A DNA stretch of 61,169 bases from IMG/VR virus record IMGVR_UViG_3300046758_000288, positions 1 to 61,169 of that record. One strand, 5' to 3'. The DNA is from a virus. Taxonomy: Duplodnaviria; Caudoviricetes. The notes under the pieces are model-generated. The model did not search any database. It saw only the letters and a program-made list of their open reading frames with translations, and was not told the origin of the DNA. Both the position numbers and the translations under genes were made by a program. Shown in pieces: positions 51,760-58,169 of this stretch (position 1 is its first letter; each line of letters opens with the position of its first letter).

Positions 51760-52479
51760 TTGAAGGTATATTACACTAACGATGAAGCAGTATTGCAAGA
51801 CAGTGTCAATGTCAAGCAAGATATGTCTATGGCATATCTACCGCCAGAGTTGTTAGGTAAACATATACCAGAAAAGATGAAACTAAGTGACTATGTACAA
51901 TGTCCAGCGTTTACTGGCACTATTAGAAATACATATGCACTTAGATTTCCTTTTGATTTTACACTTAAGATAAACACACAAACTTGGAATATAGAATCAA
52001 ATCGACCTGAGTTTGTAAAAACATATCTTACTCCACCTTACGATAATAGCGGAGTGTTACAGTTACACTTAGGAACATTATTTTTTGCAGACAAGTCGTG
52101 TGTAGCAGAGCAAGTACATCCTTATCTACACAGTAATAGCTTAACACAAAACGCAAACGTATTACAAGGTCAATTTGATATAGGAAAATGGTTTAGACCA
52201 ATAAATCTTGCATTTCGTATCAACTCTACAGATAAAGAAGTTGTTATTGATTTTAATCGAGGTGATGTGTACAGTTATTTAAGACTTCATACTAACGAAA
52301 AAGTAAACATGTATGAGTTTGAAAACACACCAGATATAAACACAATAATGGCTCGTTGCGTAAGTTTTAAAAATGCAAAAACACAACCTCTAAAACAAAT
52401 GTATGATAGTTTCTTAAGAAAAAAGTACAATAAGAAATTATTAAAATTAATCCAACAAAATAAAATAGGAGAAATATAA
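51760..52479 (+). CDS. Hypothetical protein
   Basis: [14 protein letters not shown] motifs. Confidence 0.65.
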
Positions 52480-53096
52480 TGCCTTTAATTCCAATGGTAG
52501 TAGAACAGGAGAGTCGAGGCGAACGCTCTTGGGACATTTATAGTCGTCTAATGAAGGACCGCATTATTATGCTTAATGGTCCAGTTGAAGATGTAATGGC
52601 TAATGTAGTCGTTGCACAAATGCTTTATTTGGAGAGTGAAAATCCTGACAAGGATATTAACTTATATATTAATTCACCTGGTGGGCAAGTAACAGCCGGA
52701 CTTGCGATCTATGATACAATGCAATACATCAAATGTGATGTTAAAACTATTGTAATGGGTCAAGCATGTTCAATGGGTTCGTTCCTAGCACAAGCAGGTA
52801 CAGCAGGTAAGCGTATTGTACTGCCCGAAAGTCGTACAATGATTCATAGAGTAAGTTCAGGCACACCAGGTACAAGTGGTAGTGTACATATTCAAGAACT
52901 ACAAATTGAAGACATCAATCGACATTATGAAGAGTCACAAAAAATTAACAAGCGTCTTACAGAATTGTATGTCAAACACAATACCGCAGGTAAGTCCTAT
53001 GAAGAACTGTTTGAAACAATGAAGTTTGATACTTTCTTGACAGCGCAAGAAGCAGTAGAAAATGGACTTGCTGATAAAGTAGTAGAGAAAAGATAA
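52479..53096 (+). CDS. clpP: Clp protease proteolytic subunit
   Basis: [26 protein letters not shown] (Ser), MIH (His), DTFL. Confidence 0.95.
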
Positions 53097-53287
53097 TGGA
53101 AGTAGCAAGTAAAGATCCAGGCAAGTTTCACTTTTATGTGAGTCTTGTAAAAAGTGCAGTACGTATAGCCGCAGGTATTGCATTAATGATAGGCGGCTGG
53201 TACCTTGAAGAGTGGGGTACATGGATTATGGCAAGTGGCGGATTATTAATTGCCGCAGAAGTTTTAGGTATTGTGGAGGAACTATGA
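53096..53287 (+). CDS. Small membrane protein
   Basis: Two TM helices, AEVLGIVEEL. Confidence 0.65.
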   Translation: MEVASKDPGKFHFYVSLVKSAVRIAAGIALMIGGWYLEEWGTWIMASGGLLIAAEVLGIVEEL

Positions 53288-53613
53288 ACCAAGTTGCAGA
53301 TAAAGTTGCCGACCTTAAAGGCATTCCTACTAGAAACGAACTGTTAAAGTTGTTAAAAGAAAACGTGGTGGAAGTTACGTTTACCAAATTAAATGGCGAT
53401 GAGCGTATAATGCCCTGTACGCTTGTCGAATCGTACCTTCCGCCCGCTCGCAAAGACGATGCAATTACTCAAAAGAAAGTTCGAGAGATATCTGATGCTG
53501 TTGTTGCAGTATGGGCTATCGAGTCTAAAGGTTTTCGTAGTTTCCGTTATGATAGAGTCAAAAAAGTTACAGTGTTAGATAACTTTTCAGTTGACAATAA
53601 TACAAAAACGTAG
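53284..53613 (+). CDS. Conserved phage SH3/WYL-like protein
   Basis: VTFTKLNGDERIMPCTL, GFRSFR. Confidence 0.65.
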   Translation: MNQVADKVADLKGIPTRNELLKLLKENVVEVTFTKLNGDERIMPCTLVESYLPPARKDDAITQKKVREISDAVVAVWAIESKGFRSFRYDRVKKVTVLDNFSVDNNTKT

Positions 53614-53619
53614 TAGTAT
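53591..53619 (+). promoter_or_regulatory. sigma70-type promoter of first tRNA cluster
   Basis: TTGACA-N17-TAGTAT. Confidence 0.7.
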
Positions 53620-53631
53620 AAGTAATAAGCT

Positions 53632-53721
53632 GGAAGATTGGCTGAGTGGTTTAAAGCGGCGGATTACTAATCCGTTGTACGTGAGAGCGTACCGTGGGTT
53701 CGAATCCTACATCTTCCGCCA
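53632..53721 (+). tRNA. tRNA-Ser(ACT), unusual anticodon
   Basis: GGAAGAT/ATCTTCC acceptor, G73, CCA, long variable arm; GCGGA-TTACTAA-TCCGT. Confidence 0.88.
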
Positions 53722-53725
53722 AGAA

Positions 53726-53799
53726 GCGGGTGTTGTGTAATGGTAAGACCTTAGCCTTCCAAGCTAATGATAGGAGTTCGATTCTCCTCACCCGCTCCA
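53726..53799 (+). tRNA. tRNA-Gly(TCC)
   Basis: TTAGC-CTTCCAA-GCTAA; U73, CCA. Confidence 0.92.
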
Positions 53800-53817
53800 A
53801 AAGAAAGGAGTCGCATT

Positions 53818-53967
53818 ATGCGACAAACAAAAGAACAACGTGAAGCAATTATTGCAGGTGCAGTAGCTCAGATAAAAGCAAACGTTGAAAAACTAAATAG
53901 TGGACCTATGGAACATACGTTAAAACGTAGAGCCGCACTTGAAAAGAAAGCGAATAAACGCAGATAA
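53818..53967 (+). CDS. Small basic protein
   Basis: AAGGAG RBS; MRQTKEQRE..KKANKRR. Confidence 0.55.
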   Translation: MRQTKEQREAIIAGAVAQIKANVEKLNSGPMEHTLKRRAALEKKANKRR

Positions 53968-53972
53968 AAAAT

Positions 53973-54149
53973 ATGAATAATCCTGTTGTAAAAGTTGTTT
54001 ATAGGCATTGGAAGACTGGTAAAGAATTAGAAGTTACTGGTAAAATAATTCCAATAAACGAGAACAGTGATCGAATAGTAGTATTGTGTGAAAATGGTGT
54101 GTACGAAGATATCATACGTGATACTATAATAAGTCAAACGCCGGCATAG
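53973..54149 (+). CDS. 58-aa hypothetical protein overlapping the tRNA-Thr 5' end
   Basis: MNNPVVKVVYRHWKTGKELEVTG.. Confidence 0.45.
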   Translation: MNNPVVKVVYRHWKTGKELEVTGKIIPINENSDRIVVLCENGVYEDIIRDTIISQTPA

Positions 54150-54215
54150 CTCAGTTGGTAGAGCAACTGATTTGTAATCAGTAGGTCCCGAGTTCGAATC
54201 TTGGTGCCGGCACCA
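54140..54215 (+). tRNA. tRNA-Thr(TGT)
   Basis: ACTGA-TTTGTAA-TCAGT; CCA. Confidence 0.95.
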
Positions 54216-54222
54216 TATTATT

Positions 54223-54307
54223 GCGCCTGTGGTGAAATTGGTAGACACGCTAGATTTAGGTTCTAGTGCTTTACGGCGTGGGGGTTCAAGTCCCTCCAGG
54301 CGCACCA
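54223..54307 (+). tRNA. tRNA-Leu(TAG)
   Basis: CTAGA-TTTAGGT-TCTAG; long variable arm; CCA. Confidence 0.93.
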
Positions 54308-54329
54308 AACAAAAAGAAAGGACCCTAAG

Positions 54330-54635
54330 ATGAGAGAATGGGTATTCAATTGTTGGAATGTAGTAATGGATCATAATATGAATCCGCTGAGTAACATTCC
54401 AGACTTCAGTACACGACATATGATTATGCAAGTCCTTGCATGGATGTGGTGTATTGTATTTGCTATTATTGTAGGTAGTATGTGGGCAGGAGTGTTTAGT
54501 ATGATGCTACATACATTATTACTAGGTGCTATCGCAATCACAGTAGCAACATTCGAAACAGCTAAACGCAATCCAAAAGCATTCCGTAGAGACAACGGTA
54601 TTAATTCACGTGGATACGGTGGTGAACACGAATGA
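54330..54635 (+). CDS. Membrane protein
   Basis: NPLSNIPD..MQVLAWMWC; two TM. Confidence 0.7.
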   Translation: MREWVFNCWNVVMDHNMNPLSNIPDFSTRHMIMQVLAWMWCIVFAIIVGSMWAGVFSMMLHTLLLGAIAITVATFETAKRNPKAFRRDNGINSRGYGGEHE

Positions 54636-54790
54636 GTGAACAAACTAATTATTGTACCACAAAAGGATTGTTACCAGCATTCCTTATCATTGCTTTCTTT
54701 ATTGTAGGCATTCCGTTATTAATGGTAGACAATGCAAAATATTGTAAGCAGAGTATTATTCCTTGTTATCCTTGGGTAACACCGGAGTAG
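54632..54790 (+). CDS. 52-aa membrane peptide
   Basis: ATGA overlap; MSEQTNYCTTKGLLPAFLIIAFFIVGIPLL.. Confidence 0.55.
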   Translation: MSEQTNYCTTKGLLPAFLIIAFFIVGIPLLMVDNAKYCKQSIIPCYPWVTPE

Positions 54791-54806
54791 GCTAAATACT
54801 TTTACA

Positions 54807-54980
54807 ATGTTTAGTGCAGTCAAAGAAATAATTTGGCATTTAACGTGCAAGGGTTGTAGCAATTGGTTTACATATGCTACAATGGAAGATAAGTATTGCA
54901 TTGAACGAACAACATTTCATTGTCCACACTGCGGGAAAAAAGGCAGAGTAGATAAAAAAGATGTTGACATAACAGAATAA
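54807..54980 (+). CDS. 57-aa zinc-ribbon protein
   Basis: CKGC..CPHCG; TAAATA upstream. Confidence 0.6.
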   Translation: MFSAVKEIIWHLTCKGCSNWFTYATMEDKYCIERTTFHCPHCGKKGRVDKKDVDITE

Positions 54981-54997
54981 AGAGTGTATTATAAATA
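54964..54997 (+). promoter_or_regulatory. Composite sigma70 + late promoter of leader/tRNA unit
   Basis: TTGACA-N17-TATTAT overlapping exact TATAAATA (54990-54997). Confidence 0.8.
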
Positions 54998-55023
54998 CAT
55001 AATAAGAAATAAGGAATACTAAC

Positions 55024-55092
55024 GTGTTAAGAACTGTACAACAATCGTCATTACAGAATTGGTGCCCAATACATGGAAGGGGTATGTCTTAA
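55024..55092 (+). CDS. Putative attenuator leader peptide MLRTVQQSSLQNWCPIHGRGMS
   Basis: AAGGA SD 8 nt before GTG; Gln/Trp/Cys codons match downstream tRNAs. Confidence 0.65.
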   Translation: MLRTVQQSSLQNWCPIHGRGMS

Positions 55093-55121
55093 CGCGACTT
55101 TATAAAAAAGTTATTTTAAGC

Positions 55122-55156
55122 AAGCCCCTAGTGTTAATTCATTAGGGGCTTTTTTT
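55122..55156 (+). terminator. Attenuator terminator immediately before tRNA-Trp
   Basis: AAGCCCCTAGTG-TTAATT-CATTAGGGGCTT + T run. Confidence 0.85.
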
Positions 55157-55230
55157 GTCGGTGAAGTGTTATGGTAGCACGGCGGTCTCCAAAACCGCAA
55201 GCGGGGGTTCGACTCCCTCCACCGATGCCA
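55157..55230 (+). tRNA. tRNA-Trp(CCA)
   Basis: GCGGT-CTCCAAA-ACCGC; G73, CCA. Confidence 0.93.
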
Positions 55231-55235
55231 ATTAC

Positions 55236-55310
55236 TGGGGAATAGTCTAGAGGTAGGACGACTGTTTTTGATACAGTAGATCGTAGGTTCGAATCCTACT
55301 TCCCCAGCCA
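55236..55310 (+). tRNA. tRNA-Gln(TTG)
   Basis: ACTGT-TTTTGAT-ACAGT; U1-A72, G73, CCA. Confidence 0.9.
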
Positions 55311-55311
55311 A

Positions 55312-55385
55312 CACTAAGTGGCAGAGTGGCTATGCAACGGACTGCAACTCCGTGTACGCCGGTTCGATTCCGGCCTTAGTGTCCA
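55312..55385 (+). tRNA. tRNA-Cys(GCA)
   Basis: ACGGA-CTGCAAC-TCCGT; U73, CCA. Confidence 0.9.
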
Positions 55386-55392
55386 TTTTCGG

Positions 55393-55421
55393 TTGACATA
55401 GTATCAAATATGTCGTATAAT
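55393..55421 (+). promoter_or_regulatory. sigma70-type promoter
   Basis: TTGACA-N17-TATAAT. Confidence 0.85.
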
Positions 55422-55455
55422 AGTTGTATAATTAGGCACACAAGGGCATAAGGCT

Positions 55456-55974
55456 ATGGCAATATTCGTAATCAGTGACACACACTTTAACCACGCAAAC
55501 ATCCTTGACTTTAAGGATTACGTTGGTAAGCCGTGTAGAGAGTTTGATAGTGTTGATCAAATGAACCAGTGTATGTTAGACAACTGGAACGATACAGTTG
55601 GTCCTAACGACACTGTTATTCACTGTGGTGACGTTCTTTTTGGTATGGACAAAGTTGATTGGTTAACAGCAAACTTTGCAAAGTTGCCTGGTAAGAAAAG
55701 ACTTGTTCTTGGTAACCACGACAATGTAAAGCACCTTGCACCGTTCTTCAAAGATATCCAGTTATGGATTGATATGAGTGATAAAGGTTTAATCTTTACT
55801 CACACACCTTTGCACCCTAGCACACTTGCTGAGAAGCATAGGTTTGGTGACGGCGACTTGTTGAACGTACACGGACATATCCACACTAATCCTTCACCCG
55901 AAGGACCTTACAAGTGTGTTTGTGTTGAGCAGATCAACTTTACTCCGATAGACATAGATAGTTTGAGGGCGTGA
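55456..55974 (+). CDS. Calcineurin-like metallophosphoesterase
   Basis: SDTHF, GDV, GNHD, HTP, HGHIH. Confidence 0.9.
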   Translation: MAIFVISDTHFNHANILDFKDYVGKPCREFDSVDQMNQCMLDNWNDTVGPNDTVIHCGDVLFGMDKVDWLTANFAKLPGKKRLVLGNHDNVKHLAPFFKDIQLWIDMSDKGLIFTHTPLHPSTLAEKHRFGDGDLLNVHGHIHTNPSPEGPYKCVCVEQINFTPIDIDSLRA

Positions 55975-56126
55975 TGGCTAAGAAGGTTAGGCGCCCTCAA
56001 GCACCTAAGGTTAGGAATTGGGTAGCAAAACAAGTTCGTGATTTAGACGGACCTTTTCGTCCAAAGGTAATTAAAAACAAGGTTAAGAAGAAACCTAAGT
56101 ATAACAGAATAGATTGGGATGATTGA
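55974..56126 (+). CDS. 50-aa basic peptide, ArfA-like
   Basis: TGATG coupling; NWVAKQVRDLDGPFRPKVIKNKVKKKPKYNR. Confidence 0.5.
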   Translation: MAKKVRRPQAPKVRNWVAKQVRDLDGPFRPKVIKNKVKKKPKYNRIDWDD

Positions 56127-56313
56127 ACATCGTATGTACGAATTAGAAAAGTGGAAGAACGGTAAAATCGTTGAAAGACATATTGTCCTTGCCACACCCA
56201 AAAAAGCAACGTGGTATGCTTTACAAGGATGGGACGTATTTGATTACCACAAGAACTTAGATATGGAGCCAGAATATTATGAAACTGAAGGACTTTCAAT
56301 TATTGGAAACTGA
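56119..56313 (+). CDS. Hypothetical protein
   Basis: Coupled ORF. Confidence 0.55.
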   Translation: MIEHRMYELEKWKNGKIVERHIVLATPKKATWYALQGWDVFDYHKNLDMEPEYYETEGLSIIGN

Positions 56314-56563
56314 TGTACCAAAAGGTGTACAAGCTATTGTTAACTTTGGTAAGTATGAACTTAGCATCGTTAACAACGAAGCGTCATACGGCAACAAACA
56401 GGGCTTGTTTGAAATTGCTGTATTCAAAGATGGTGAACAAACCGAACTTCCTGGTATTACCCAGCCTGGTGATACAGTAAAAGGCTTCTTGACAAGTGAA
56501 GAAGTTGATGCTATACTAACTAAAATGTACACAATAACAGGCAAAGAAGGCAAACAGATATGA
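56279..56563 (+). CDS. Conserved phage hypothetical protein
   Basis: SYGNKQGLFEIAV, VKGFLT. Confidence 0.65.
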   Translation: MKLKDFQLLETDVPKGVQAIVNFGKYELSIVNNEASYGNKQGLFEIAVFKDGEQTELPGITQPGDTVKGFLTSEEVDAILTKMYTITGKEGKQI

Positions 56564-57867
56564 GAACACAACCACAGGACATTATTGCACGTTTAGAAGC
56601 AGACAATAGTCGACTTGCAAAAGAAGCAATTCTAAAAGAAGCACACGAGGAAGGACTTCCAGAGTTCTTTGAAGGTCTTACAATGGCCCTTGACCCACTT
56701 GTTACATTTGGAGTTAAGCAAGTGCCTGAACGTTCAGATGTACTAAGTGGTCAAGGTCTTGAATGGCCCGTGTTCAAAGAATTGTGCCGTAAGTTACAAG
56801 ACCGTAGCCTTACTGGTCACGCCGCTCGTGATGCAATTATTTTGTGTAAAGATACTGCTACTGAAGAACAATGGAACGGATGGTACCGTAGGATTCTTAT
56901 CAAGGATTTGCGTTGCGGCGTTTCAGAAAAAACTGTAAACAAGATTGCACCAGGTACAGTACCTATGTTTACTTGTAGTCTAGCACATGACTCTGCTAAC
57001 CACGAAAAGAAGATGGTTGGTAAAAAGCAAATTGAAATTAAACTAGACGGTGTTCGTGTACTTACAGTTATTCAAGGTGATAAGGTTGAGATGTTTAGTC
57101 GTAACGGTAAACAGTTTCACAACTTTGGTCACATCATTGCAGAGATTGAAGCAGTAATTAAAGAACACCCTGTGCCTTATCCGCTTGTACTAGACGGAGA
57201 AGTAATGAGTGCTAACTTCCAAGACCTTATGAAGCAAGTGCATCGTAAAGACGGTAAGCAATCAACTGATGCTGTACTACACTTGTTTGATACTATTCCA
57301 TTAGGTTGTTTCAAAGCAGGTAGTTGGGACAAGCCACAGAGCTTTAGGAGCCTTATTACTAACCATTGGGTACGTGATCATCAAGACGCCTTAGCGCACG
57401 TACAAGCGTTGGATTGGGAAGATGTTGACTTGGACACACCCGAAGGTCAAGAACGCTTTGTAGCGTTAAATAAAGCGGCTGTAGACGGTGGTTATGAAGG
57501 TGTTATGATTAAGGACACTGATGCACCATACGAATGTAAGCGTACACACGCTTGGCTAAAGGCAAAACCATTTATAGAAGTAACATTGGAGGTAGTAGAT
57601 GTTGAAGAAGGTACTGGCCGTAATGAAGGCAGACTTGGAGCGATTGTCTGCAACGGAGTCGACGACGGTAAGACTATTAGCGTTAATGTCGGTAGTGGCT
57701 TCACTGATGTTCATAGGGACGACTATTGGAATAATCGTGATGCTCTTATTGGCAATCTTGTAGAGGTGCGAGCAGATGCAATTACACAAAATCAAGACGG
57801 TACTTACTCGCTTCGTTTCCCAAGGTTCAAAACCTTCCGAGGATTCGAAGTTGGTGAAAAAGTCTAA
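56560..57867 (+). CDS. lig: ATP-dependent DNA ligase
   Basis: EIKLDGVR, SRNGK, LDGEV, EGVMIK, WLKAKP, VGSGF, SLRFPRF. Confidence 0.95.
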   Translation: MRTQPQDIIARLEADNSRLAKEAILKEAHEEGLPEFFEGLTMALDPLVTFGVKQVPERSDVLSGQGLEWPVFKELCRKLQDRSLTGHAARDAIILCKDTATEEQWNGWYRRILIKDLRCGVSEKTVNKIAPGTVPMFTCSLAHDSANHEKKMVGKKQIEIKLDGVRVLTVIQGDKVEMFSRNGKQFHNFGHIIAEIEAVIKEHPVPYPLVLDGEVMSANFQDLMKQVHRKDGKQSTDAVLHLFDTIPLGCFKAGSWDKPQSFRSLITNHWVRDHQDALAHVQALDWEDVDLDTPEGQERFVALNKAAVDGGYEGVMIKDTDAPYECKRTHAWLKAKPFIEVTLEVVDVEEGTGRNEGRLGAIVCNGVDDGKTISVNVGSGFTDVHRDDYWNNRDALIGNLVEVRADAITQNQDGTYSLRFPRFKTFRGFEVGEKV

Positions 57868-57929
57868 AATACAAAGATACACCAAGAGCAAGGCAAACGA
57901 AAATGCTCGTTGCGTATGGGACTTAGAGC

Positions 57930-58169
57930 ATGAAGGCTGAATATGTTCTCTACAAGTTTAACATGGCTGATGTAGAAGATCCCGACATCTATGCCGCCGC
58001 ACCATTATACGAATGGCAACAAACACCAGAGGGAAAATGGTGTATGGAATATGCCGAAGATCCTAAGTATCATATTGCTGTAGATGACCACTCATATGGA
58101 TACATAGTTACCGTTACAGGAACACTCAAAGACAAGTACGCAACATACTATGCTCTCAAAAAGCCTTGA
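57930..58169 (+). CDS. Hypothetical protein
   Basis: DVEDPDIYAA. Confidence 0.65.
   Translation: MKAEYVLYKFNMADVEDPDIYAAAPLYEWQQTPEGKWCMEYAEDPKYHIAVDDHSYGYIVTVTGTLKDKYATYYALKKP

Follow-up and report, generated by a model that had tools for sequence, protein, structure and literature searches.

A probable leader-peptide transcription attenuator ahead of Trp-led tRNA clusters in an uncultured marine phage lineage

Ribosome-mediated transcription attenuation is known from trpL of Escherichia coli and from the his, leu, thr, ilv, pheA and pheST leaders, classically with runs of regulatory codons. T-boxes, which precede Gram-positive aminoacyl-tRNA synthetase and amino-acid genes, bind uncharged transfer RNA (tRNA) directly, by means of a specifier codon and the T-box sequence, and need no translation. 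TnaC, the leader peptide of the tna operon, depends on essential Trp and Pro residues, detects free tryptophan by way of the growing peptide and prevents Rho-dependent termination at the leader stop codon. Phage tRNAs, to our knowledge, are usually seen as constitutive cargo, making up for codon usage or standing in for tRNAs that the host destroys, and the control of their expression is largely unknown. The locus presented here lies in a 61,169-nucleotide (nt) stretch of viral DNA (Duplodnaviria; Caudoviricetes), referred to below as the window, which covers positions 1 to 61,169 of IMG/VR record IMGVR_UViG_3300046758_000288 and is a fragment estimated to be 18% complete. It comprises a promoter, a short upstream open reading frame (uORF) and a terminator placed directly ahead of genes for tRNA-Trp, tRNA-Gln and tRNA-Cys. 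Judged from sequence comparison and folding models, it is quite probably a ribosome-mediated (leader-peptide) transcription attenuator of the trp/his type whose output is a Trp-led phage tRNA cluster, as an initial annotation of the same DNA had proposed.

With the trpL class the phage leader shares a promoter-proximal short open reading frame (ORF) with a Shine-Dalgarno (SD) sequence, regulatory codons in RNA segment 1, and four segments predicted to pair as 1:2, 2:3 (the antiterminator) or 3:4 (the terminator with its U-run), termination being the presumed default. The stop codon is likewise placed so that a terminating ribosome would cover segment 2. Unlike that class, the phage leader has tRNA-Trp, tRNA-Gln and tRNA-Cys as its regulated genes in place of biosynthetic or aminoacyl-tRNA synthetase genes, its sensor is one invariant Trp codon accompanied by changing single codons for several amino acids, and the element sits in a phage. 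It also has an extra long-range helix between the start codon and sequence past the stop codon, so that the modelled anatomy is one of four segments plus a helix predicted to sequester the start codon. A model of attenuation at the pheL leader is set out in the accessible text of PMC3082878. With T-boxes the phage leader would have in common the sensing of a specific charged tRNA supply and the choice between terminator and antiterminator, but its uORF is predicted to be translated. With TnaC it would share a short leader peptide containing Trp and Pro that controls downstream transcription, but it has an intrinsic terminator and codon-level co-variation with tRNA genes. An Rfam scan of positions 52000-58000 with E-values up to 10 returned no Trp, His, Leu or Thr leader and no T-box; the only matches on the leader itself were PyrR (24 bits, E 4.9) and L10_leader (20.7 bits, E 4.4), neither of which comes near its gathering score.

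Direct support for the attenuator reading comes from the anatomy of the leader, its conservation, the uORF frame, the base pairs of the start/stop helix and the terminator that change in a compensatory way, and the cognate co-variation between leader codons and tRNA genes. The promoter, the SD sequence, the 22-codon uORF with its Gln, Trp and Cys codons, the strong terminator and the three tRNAs are all found where the initial annotation had placed them (Table 1), with one correction: the gap between the T-run and tRNA-Trp, given there as 1 nt, is 0 nt. In the window uORF, CAA CAA occupies 55039-44 and CAG AAT TGG TGC occupies 55054-65.

Relatives were collected in two ways. Through the neighbouring ORF 55456-55971, 80 loci with 63-95% protein identity were fetched, many of which carry a Trp-led tRNA cluster whose other members differ. 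A nhmmer search with 54960-55160 as query detected the unit in full, -35 hexamer through T-run, in 36 of these 80 loci, and a diverged unit with the same order of parts occurs in 14 further loci (L054 and L058-L070), with the uORF MNTKYTNNYEWCGCEPPGGVL and the pattern MNTKYTNNYEWCGCEPPGG(V/I)L. In addition, scanning IMG/VR with a pattern made from the most conserved block gave at least 118 stretches. The main set holds at least 154 occurrences, which reduce to at least 83 unique 220-nt cores. Complete leaders number 80 and encode 68 distinct peptides; 78 leaders have downstream sequence and were folded, and 73 have at least 600 nt downstream. A hold-out set was drawn from metagenome contigs with the same pattern (at least 119 stretches, 75 cores new to the main set). 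Sufficient upstream sequence was present for 68 of the 75 new cores, and one of these, L266, was a chance match inside a gene, which leaves 67 leaders; 38 of the 49 hold-out peptides are new to the set. At the level of sequence, these comparisons confirm that the leader unit is conserved across an uncultured marine phage lineage.

No cultured phage is closely related: across 50,697 phage records, a nucleotide search matched the tRNAs only, and the DNA ligase ORF of the window has at most 34.5% identity to SPO1-like and Lysinibacillus phages. In bacterial genomes, covering 185,579 species, the leader pattern matched one contig, and this contig, with no tRNA or leader around the match, represents a chance hit.

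The uORF, which had been predicted to be conserved in homologous loci, is intact in all 80 complete unique leaders, where its frame is open, against 35 and 23 of 80 for the +1 and +2 frames. Its length ranges from 17 to 22 codons, so all length changes are of whole codons. Translation would start at ATG (61 leaders) or GTG (19) and end at TGA (61) or TAA (19). Under a strict pattern, an AAGGA/AGGA-like SD sequence precedes the start in 79 of the 83 unique cores; three of the remaining four have a weaker GAG-type motif and one is cut off upstream. The codon UGG is present in every one of the 80 leaders, as one copy in 71 and as two in nine, and the earlier caveat that the Trp codon is single therefore stands. 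The hold-out leaders retain SD, start, stop and Trp as well, with 63 of 67 uORFs canonical and 66 of 67 keeping a short ORF.

Within the frame, constraint is distributed unevenly. The 68 distinct peptides share a core, [C]W[C]P[P]..G.S followed by the stop codon, in which Pro-Pro after Trp is nearly universal and W+2 (codons being counted from the Trp codon, W) is Pro in 58 of 73 leaders. The Pro and Cys codons differ synonymously (CCA 89, CCG 31, CCT 11, CCC 3; TGT 48, TGC 33), and the positions adjacent to Trp are occupied by residues of quite different chemistry (C, Y, N, R, G, D) that replace one another freely. The last four codons, by comparison, form the most conserved block of the leader and are near-fixed even at synonymous sites (GGT in 78 and TCT in 79 of 80 leaders), which indicates an RNA constraint on that stretch. 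A type I toxin or other small hydrophobic, membrane-active peptide, of the kind whose genes show 5'-3' pairing, was also considered as the product and rejected, the uORF peptides being polar (for example MSQTNTTYITCWPPSGGMS) with no hydrophobic stretch.

The central evidence concerns the codons around UGG, which follow the tRNA cargo. The 73 leaders with at least 600 nt downstream are followed by clusters of 37 different compositions. For the co-variation test, a tree was built from the leader flanks and tRNA-Trp, with the middle of the uORF excluded; phylogenetically independent pairs differing in a cluster tRNA were then taken, and the presence of the cognate codon was scored in W-5 to W+2. 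Cognate tRNA and codon changed in the same direction in 16.0 pairs and in opposite directions in 0.3, whereas all non-cognate combinations together gave 66.6 versus 67.7. The cognate sum (same minus opposite) of 15.6 compares with -0.07 +/- 2.39 (maximum 9.9) for random non-cognate assignments, and none of 11,662 assignments reached it. When the whole uORF was scored in place of the eight codons, the pooled cognate counts were 18.9 versus 0.3. In the hold-out, where 46 leaders have at least 600 nt downstream and the same definitions were applied, the cognate counts were 10.3 versus 1.3 and the non-cognate counts 45.6 versus 59.8; the cognate sum of 9.0 was reached by none of 11,747 random assignments (-0.8 +/- 1.9, maximum 6.5). 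Two post-hoc assignments, namely a tRNA(CAU) reading AUA and Gly limited to codons upstream of Trp, were excluded from the cognate-sum statistics of both sets. The predicted co-variation of uORF codons with the downstream tRNAs is thus present, is specific to cognate combinations and is repeated in the hold-out. As a comparative signal, it shows that the identity of the leader codons matters relative to the tRNA genes past the terminator, which a plain terminator would explain no better than a small protein gene.

Raw counts over the 73 leaders illustrate the trend. A Cys codon is present in 36 of 36 leaders with tRNA-Cys and 25 of 37 without, a Ser(UGA) codon in 12 of 15 and 11 of 58, a Tyr codon in 8 of 8 and 29 of 65, and AUA in 6 of 6 leaders with tRNA-Ile(UAU) and 12 of 67 without. 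A Gly codon lies upstream of Trp in 3 of 3 leaders with tRNA-Gly and 0 of 70 without it; for Arg(ACG) the counts are 2 of 5 and 2 of 68, and for Gln 8 of 10 and 16 of 63. The initial annotation had matched the Gln, Trp and Cys codons of the window leader to its three tRNAs. The general principle of cognate co-variation holds, but the Gln claim for the window is unsupported (0.5 versus 0.1 pairs), a weakness explained by the occurrence of Gln codons also in relatives without a cluster tRNA-Gln.

Close pairs of leaders show the same changes individually. The leader of a cluster with Cys and Ile (L003) reads ..CWCPPQ.., and that of a cluster with Ser, Gln, Cys and Ile (L004) reads ..CWCPSQ..; a leader ahead of Cys (L095) starts MSK.. 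and one ahead of Gln and Cys (L123) starts MSQ... Likewise, ..ITCWPS.. precedes Pro, Ser and Cys (L036) and ..IIGWPS.. precedes Pro, Gly, Ser, Met and Ile (L090), while ..LNWC.. precedes Met (L109) and ..LGWC.. precedes Met and Gly (L141). Position by position, cognate codons are enriched at W-6 to W-1, W+2 and W+3, with no enrichment at W+4 to W+8 (total 212 versus 148.5 +/- 7.2 in 1000 permutations, none of which reached it), and these positions agree with what the geometry of an attenuator requires. A general shift in codon usage is ruled out as the cause, because the codon ratios with and without the tRNA are flat in neighbouring ORFs (0.85-1.16), against 1.2-6.4 in the uORF.

A related observation concerns tRNAs with the anticodon CAT, which occur in the Trp cluster of L045, L090, L109, L114, L116, L141, L145, L185 and L198 and are called as Met. 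AUA is present in the uORF of 8 of 9 leaders with such a tRNA and of 10 of 64 without it (mean 2.0 versus 0.3 copies). This association suggests, by an assignment made after seeing the data, that the genes are tRNA-Ile2 of the lysidine type rather than tRNA-Met.

Some of these features would also suit a self-contained small gene, in which the promoter, a CWPP microprotein of 17-22 residues (or a dual-function small RNA of ~157 nt) and a terminator form a complete unit, the tRNAs are reached by leaky read-through, and translation of the uORF does not control termination. The unit does have its own strong promoter and terminator, its peptide core is conserved and is kept even in the 16 of 73 clusters that consist of tRNA-Trp alone, and an insert parts the terminator from the tRNA in 19 of 78 leaders. 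A small gene is nevertheless unlikely: it would leave unexplained both the cognate tracking, with neighbouring ORFs flat, and the constant presence of tRNA-Trp behind the leader; the residues flanking Trp vary freely, unlike those of a constrained protein; and the fixation of the most conserved stretch at synonymous sites points to RNA pairing.

The structure of the leader RNA was analysed for the terminating (OFF) state and for its alternative. The minimum-energy fold of 55000-55160 has -42.9 kcal/mol (z = -4.27; none of 200 shuffles was as good) and contains the helix 55023-32/55087-96, the pairing GUGCCC/GGGUAU (55062-67/55080-85), the hairpin 55097-111 and the terminator. Both the start/stop helix of 10 base pairs (bp) and the UGCCC/GGGUA protector described previously are thus part of the fold. 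The protector joins region 1, the C-rich Cys/Pro-Pro codon stretch, to region 2, a G-run. Region 2 belongs to a switch strand (55078-96) that can pair either with region 1 and the 5' strand of the start/stop helix (P1), or with the spacer and the 5' arm of the terminator. RNAalifold on the MAFFT alignment A1 gave only fragments of structure, the start/stop helix being displaced by codon indels and a one-base bulge, and per-sequence folds and hand-written structures were used.

Placed on A1, the OFF structure (outer start/stop helix, region 1:2, small hairpin and terminator) is paired in 91.9% of cells and carries double changes in 54 cells, where shuffles give 16.3 +/- 2.8 (none of 500 as high); with the partners slid, pairing is 26-56%. 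The first nucleotide of the start codon pairs with position stop+5 as G-C in 19 and A-T in 61 of 80 leaders, with no mismatch, and one pair of the terminator alternates between C-G (43 distinct rows) and U-A (27). Consequently, the compensatory changes that had been predicted are found in the start/stop helix and the terminator; the core of the antiterminator, treated below, does not show them. Among the 78 single-sequence folds, a start/stop helix of at least 7 pairs appears in 68, region 1:2 in 75, the small hairpin (P4) in 70 and the terminator in 78. The consensus pairs of region 1:2 are C-G in 64-73 of 78 leaders, and P4 is paired in 95.5% of cells. The possibility that the 74-nt domain closed by the start/stop helix is a degenerate tRNA was rejected: it has no match to a tRNA model, and the conserved frame argues against it.

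The terminator hairpin, with at least 7 pairs, is present in all 78 folded leaders (median -19.3 kcal/mol, range -23.0 to -15.0). In the window the hairpin proper spans 55122-55151 with 12 pairs, 6 of them G-C, and the T-run of seven ends at 55156. Furthermore, tRNA-Trp is the first gene past the terminator in all 78 leaders with downstream sequence, that of L150 having been missed by ARAGORN and read by eye. The distance from the T-run to the tRNA is 0-2 nt in 41 leaders (42 including L150), 6-26 nt in 17 and 70-131 nt in 19. An independent promoter beyond the hairpin, which the initial annotation had named as a finding that would contradict the proposal, is absent from the window: the consensus scan gave no promoter-like site of at least 9/12 matches on the + strand between 54992 and 55393.

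The antiterminator was examined on nascent transcripts. In the window transcript cut before the 3' arm of the terminator, AGGGGU..GUCUUAA (55078-92) pairs with UUAAG..GCCCCU (55116-29). This pairing is the minimum-energy solution both for the free RNA and with a 30-nt ribosome footprint centred on UGG, and it cannot form with the footprint over the stop codon. Across the family, the 5' arm of the terminator pairs with the switch zone in 57 of 78 leaders with the ribosome at UGG and in 64 of 78 free transcripts; with the stop codon covered it does so in 0 of 78, by the constraint itself. When the last 20 nt up to the stop codon are paired with the spacer and 5' arm, the median duplex energy is -14.95 kcal/mol, compared with -7.66 for shuffled sequences (median z -2.5), and no other upstream window makes a better partner in any of the 78 leaders. 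Members of the diverged subgroup have an altered 5' arm (ACCCCCGG), to which their region 2 (CCGGGGGU) is perfectly complementary over 8 bases. The mutually exclusive antiterminator claimed previously is compatible with the in silico folds, forming in 57 of 78 stalled ones and having the best partner throughout, but the claim gains nothing from covariation. Its six core pairs are paired in 95.6% of cells and contain 3 double-change cells, a number equalled or exceeded in 114 of 500 shuffles; this test is uninformative because the G-run and the C-run hardly vary.

These structures bear on a second explanation, in which the same tRNAs are sensed through the uORF but what responds is how the precursor is processed or how stable it is, through such effects as access of RNase P or RNase E to the 5' end of tRNA-Trp or protection of the leader 3' end, the hairpin serving as a processing or stability element. 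It would account for the co-variation equally well, and in 41-42 of 78 leaders the hairpin does adjoin the point where mature tRNA-Trp begins. However, every one of the 78 hairpins looks in all respects like an intrinsic terminator (G+C-rich 12-bp stem, U7), complementarity between the switch strand and the 5' arm of the terminator exceeds chance, and adjacency is not required, since the hairpin lies 70-131 nt from the tRNA in 19 of 78. Regulation through processing is thus quite improbable.

Hardly tenable is an arrest-peptide leader (TnaC- or SecM-like, or dependent on elongation factor P (EF-P) at Pro-Pro), in which W-(C)-P-P would stall ribosomes in response to EF-P or a small molecule such as free tryptophan and not to tRNA supply, for despite the near-universal Trp followed by Pro-Pro, with Pro at W+2 in 58 of 73 leaders, it does not predict co-variation of flanking codons with tRNA cargo, the residues around Trp vary widely, and the stop codon lies 7-10 codons past Trp, unlike the arrest of TnaC at its stop codon. 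The diproline itself, which also speaks for arrest, pauses ribosomes; in an E. coli HisL-lux reporter, according to the accessible text of PMC8129111, diproline motifs in the his leader peptide relieve attenuation, and the level of tRNA-Pro species modulates the effect. That reporter is a synthetic his-leader construct, whereas the Pro-Pro of the phage leader is natural, follows the Trp codon and is also the C-rich strand of region 1. By analogy with that relief of attenuation, the near-universal Pro-Pro could hold a ribosome on region 1 in the proposed phage attenuator, and it may thus both form region 1 and slow the ribosome there.

For the attenuator, the following course of events is proposed. 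Transcription would begin at the promoter 54964-54992, and a ribosome would load on the uORF while the polymerase advances. If the sensor stretch (about W-6 to W+3, including UGG) is decoded fast, the ribosome would get to the stop codon and cover the switch strand AGGGGUAUGUCUUAA (55078-92); the terminator 55122-55156 would then form, and transcription would stop on the U-run right before tRNA-Trp. Without translation, region 1 and the start/stop helix would hold the switch strand, and the terminator would form again. When charged tRNA is scarce, the ribosome would stall in the sensor stretch and cover region 1, leaving the switch strand free to pair with the spacer and the 5' arm of the terminator (55116-29), and polymerase would read through into the tRNA genes. 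On the most economical reading the net effect would be negative feedback, with tRNAs produced on demand when their own codons are decoded slowly. Possible triggers would be a codon mismatch with the host, loss of host tRNAs during infection or a tRNA-cleaving defence, beside the anticodon nucleases or starvation that the initial annotation had suggested. We infer the response of termination and read-through to ribosome position, the direction of the feedback and its physiological trigger from this arrangement.

Several observations weigh against the attenuator reading. Some concern the switch itself. In addition to lacking covariation, the antiterminator is much weaker than the terminator, and its formation in 64 of 78 free folds means that default termination would need the earlier-transcribed helices to win kinetically. 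The G-run follows UGG at 10-13 nt in 28 of 78 leaders, at 16 nt in 22 and at 19 nt in 28; where the distance is only 10-13 nt, a ribosome stalled exactly on UGG may partly cover region 2, and in this shortest-distance class the co-varying codons upstream of UGG are better placed than UGG itself. Furthermore, the 5' strand of P1 could re-pair behind a stalled ribosome. Others concern the sensor. Tandem or multiple regulatory codons are not the rule, Trp being single in 71 of 80 leaders and the other sensed codons mostly single; AUA is the exception, with a mean of 2.5-2.8 copies where tRNA-Ile(UAU) is present. Among the 73 leaders, Pro, Glu, Lys, Arg(GCG) and Ser(GCU) gave no co-variation signal, and Cys and Tyr codons are frequent in leaders whose clusters lack the matching tRNA (25 of 37 and 29 of 65). 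Three hold-out leaders (L217/L247 and L277, two distinct sequences) have a one-base shift that moves the stop codon and gives uORFs of 23-24 codons with the core retained, and in L317 a nonsense codon, TAG, replaces TAT at W-1. The hold-out and main leaders also belong to one family, so both sets partly re-sample the same evolutionary events.

The remaining points concern the genes behind the leader: besides the inserts of 70-131 nt in 19 of 78 leaders and the persistence of the C-W-P-P core ahead of tRNA-Trp alone, one locus has a tRNA-Trp copy away from the leader and another has a different gene order. In L076 a second tRNA-Trp (1317-1401) lies in a cluster with Asn, Ser, Trp, Gly, Thr and Leu, with no leader or terminator detected, so not every tRNA-Trp of the lineage is behind an attenuator. 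In the hold-out leader L311, tRNA-Cys stands ahead of tRNA-Trp, behind leader and insert and about 157 nt past the uORF stop; this is the only case seen in which Trp is not first, and its uORF (MSQTNTIYITNWPPTGGMS) has no Cys codon.

The inserts between terminator and tRNA-Trp are of more than one kind. Three that were folded (L006:2689-2779, L004:1221-1297 and L016:2469-2546) are each closed by a long stem of 10-19 pairs that encloses two or three small hairpins, with z from -3.0 to -4.1. The inserts are not tRNAs by Rfam and matched no Rfam family, and they may be a tRNA-like stable RNA or an additional regulatory element. The insert at L036:900-975, found also in L038, is unstructured (z 0.0) and contains a second small ORF behind an SD-like GGAGAAAGG, which reads MTDSEYWRWMKSQVE, has two Trp codons and ends 7 nt ahead of tRNA-Trp. 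The tRNA-Trp(CCA) gene itself varies: forms of 84-88 nt, apparently with a long extra arm (L010:2681-2764, L025:2557-2644, L076:2843-2927, L054:133-217), and the 74-nt form substitute for each other behind otherwise similar leaders.

Table 1. Positions of the leader elements and adjoining genes in the window.
Feature	Position	Strand	Basis or remark
Sigma-70-type promoter, TTGACA (54964-54969) and TATTAT (54987-54992), 17 nt spacing	54964-54992	+	Consensus scan, 11/12 matches
Shine-Dalgarno sequence AAGGA	55011-55015	+	8 nt ahead of the GTG start
Start/stop helix P1, 5' strand, including the GTG start	55023-55032	+	Folds; pairs with 55087-96, 10 bp
Leader uORF, 22 codons plus TAA, GTG start, reading MLRTVQQSSLQNWCPIHGRGMS	55024-55092	+	ORF translation, frame conservation
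Proposed sensor codons W-5 to W+2, TCG TCA TTA CAG AAT TGG TGC CCA	55045-55068	+	Codon/tRNA co-variation
Trp codon inside the sensor stretch	55060-55062	+	UGG in 80/80 leaders
Region 1, GUGCCC within the Trp-Cys-Pro codons, partner of region 2	55062-55067	+	Folds
Switch strand: region 2 (AGGGGUAU), then GUCUUAA with the stop codon and the P1 3' strand	55078-55096	+	Folds
Small A/U hairpin P4, ACUUU...AAAGU, enclosed by the antiterminator	55097-55111	+	Folds
Antiterminator 3' partner UUAAG..GCCCCU, spacer and start of the terminator 5' arm	55116-55129	+	Nascent-transcript folds
Intrinsic terminator, 12-bp stem, 6-nt loop, U7	55122-55156	+	Consensus scan
tRNA-Trp (CCA), first regulated gene (proposed)	55157-55230	+	ARAGORN and Rfam tRNA model
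tRNA-Gln (UUG)	55236-55310	+	ARAGORN and Rfam tRNA model
tRNA-Cys (GCA)	55312-55385	+	ARAGORN and Rfam tRNA model
Next promoter, TTGACA-17 nt-TATAAT, 12/12 matches	55393-55421	+	Heads the phosphoesterase-like ORF 55456-55974

The -35 and -10 hexamers of the leader promoter align and stay conserved among related leaders, and the leader transcript should start near 55000. The promoter that follows the tRNAs marks the end of the unit under the proposed attenuator. Within 3 kb the window holds four near-perfect sigma-70 promoters (10-12/12 matches), all on the + strand (53591-53619, 54964-54992, 55393-55421 and 56489-56517), which head short transcription units among tRNA genes; such a cluster is typical of an early region transcribed by unmodified host polymerase. 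Upstream of the leader, a 57-residue ORF (54807-54980) contains two CxxC pairs and is zinc-ribbon-like by eye alone. Its TAA stop codon (54978-54980) falls in the promoter spacer between -35 and -10; in L150 a similar ORF ends ahead of the promoter. The tRNA-Ser of the window (53632-53721) has, according to ARAGORN, the anticodon ACT with A at position 34, and its relatives have ACT or GCT at the same place, which is unusual for bacteria and their phages. Four metatranscriptome runs yielded assembled contigs of relatives (88-95% identity) and tRNA cross-matches; none of these spans 54993-55146, and the contigs weigh neither for nor against transcription or termination.

No attenuator on phage or bacterial tRNA genes was found in the accessible text of open PubMed Central and bioRxiv papers, a scope outside which the older subscription papers on T4, T5 and E. 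coli tRNA operons lie. Attenuator-like leaders, considered also for the tRNA-Phe genes of E. coli, were not seen in the accessible text of PMC7049720, where the pheU and pheV leaders are 3-4 nt long. If the reading is true, tRNA genes would here be placed under leader-peptide attenuation for the first time.

The balance of the evidence leans towards a programmable sensor of demand for several tRNAs: as the island gains or loses a tRNA, the leader would gain or lose the matching codon beside UGG, so that a single attenuator would gauge the supply of each tRNA under its control, and the island would be turned on only when the host pool fails. Textbook leader-peptide attenuation has apparently been turned onto the tRNAs themselves, which would give the phage a homeostatic, on-demand supply of tRNA during infection. 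The co-evolution of leader codons and tRNAs is a rare natural experiment in selection on individual regulatory codons. If the proposal is true, the leader would also offer a compact natural device for reading out how far chosen tRNAs are charged, and would provide a lead on whether phages sense tRNA-targeting defences. In addition, the leader sequence alone would then tell which host tRNAs limit uncultured marine phages.

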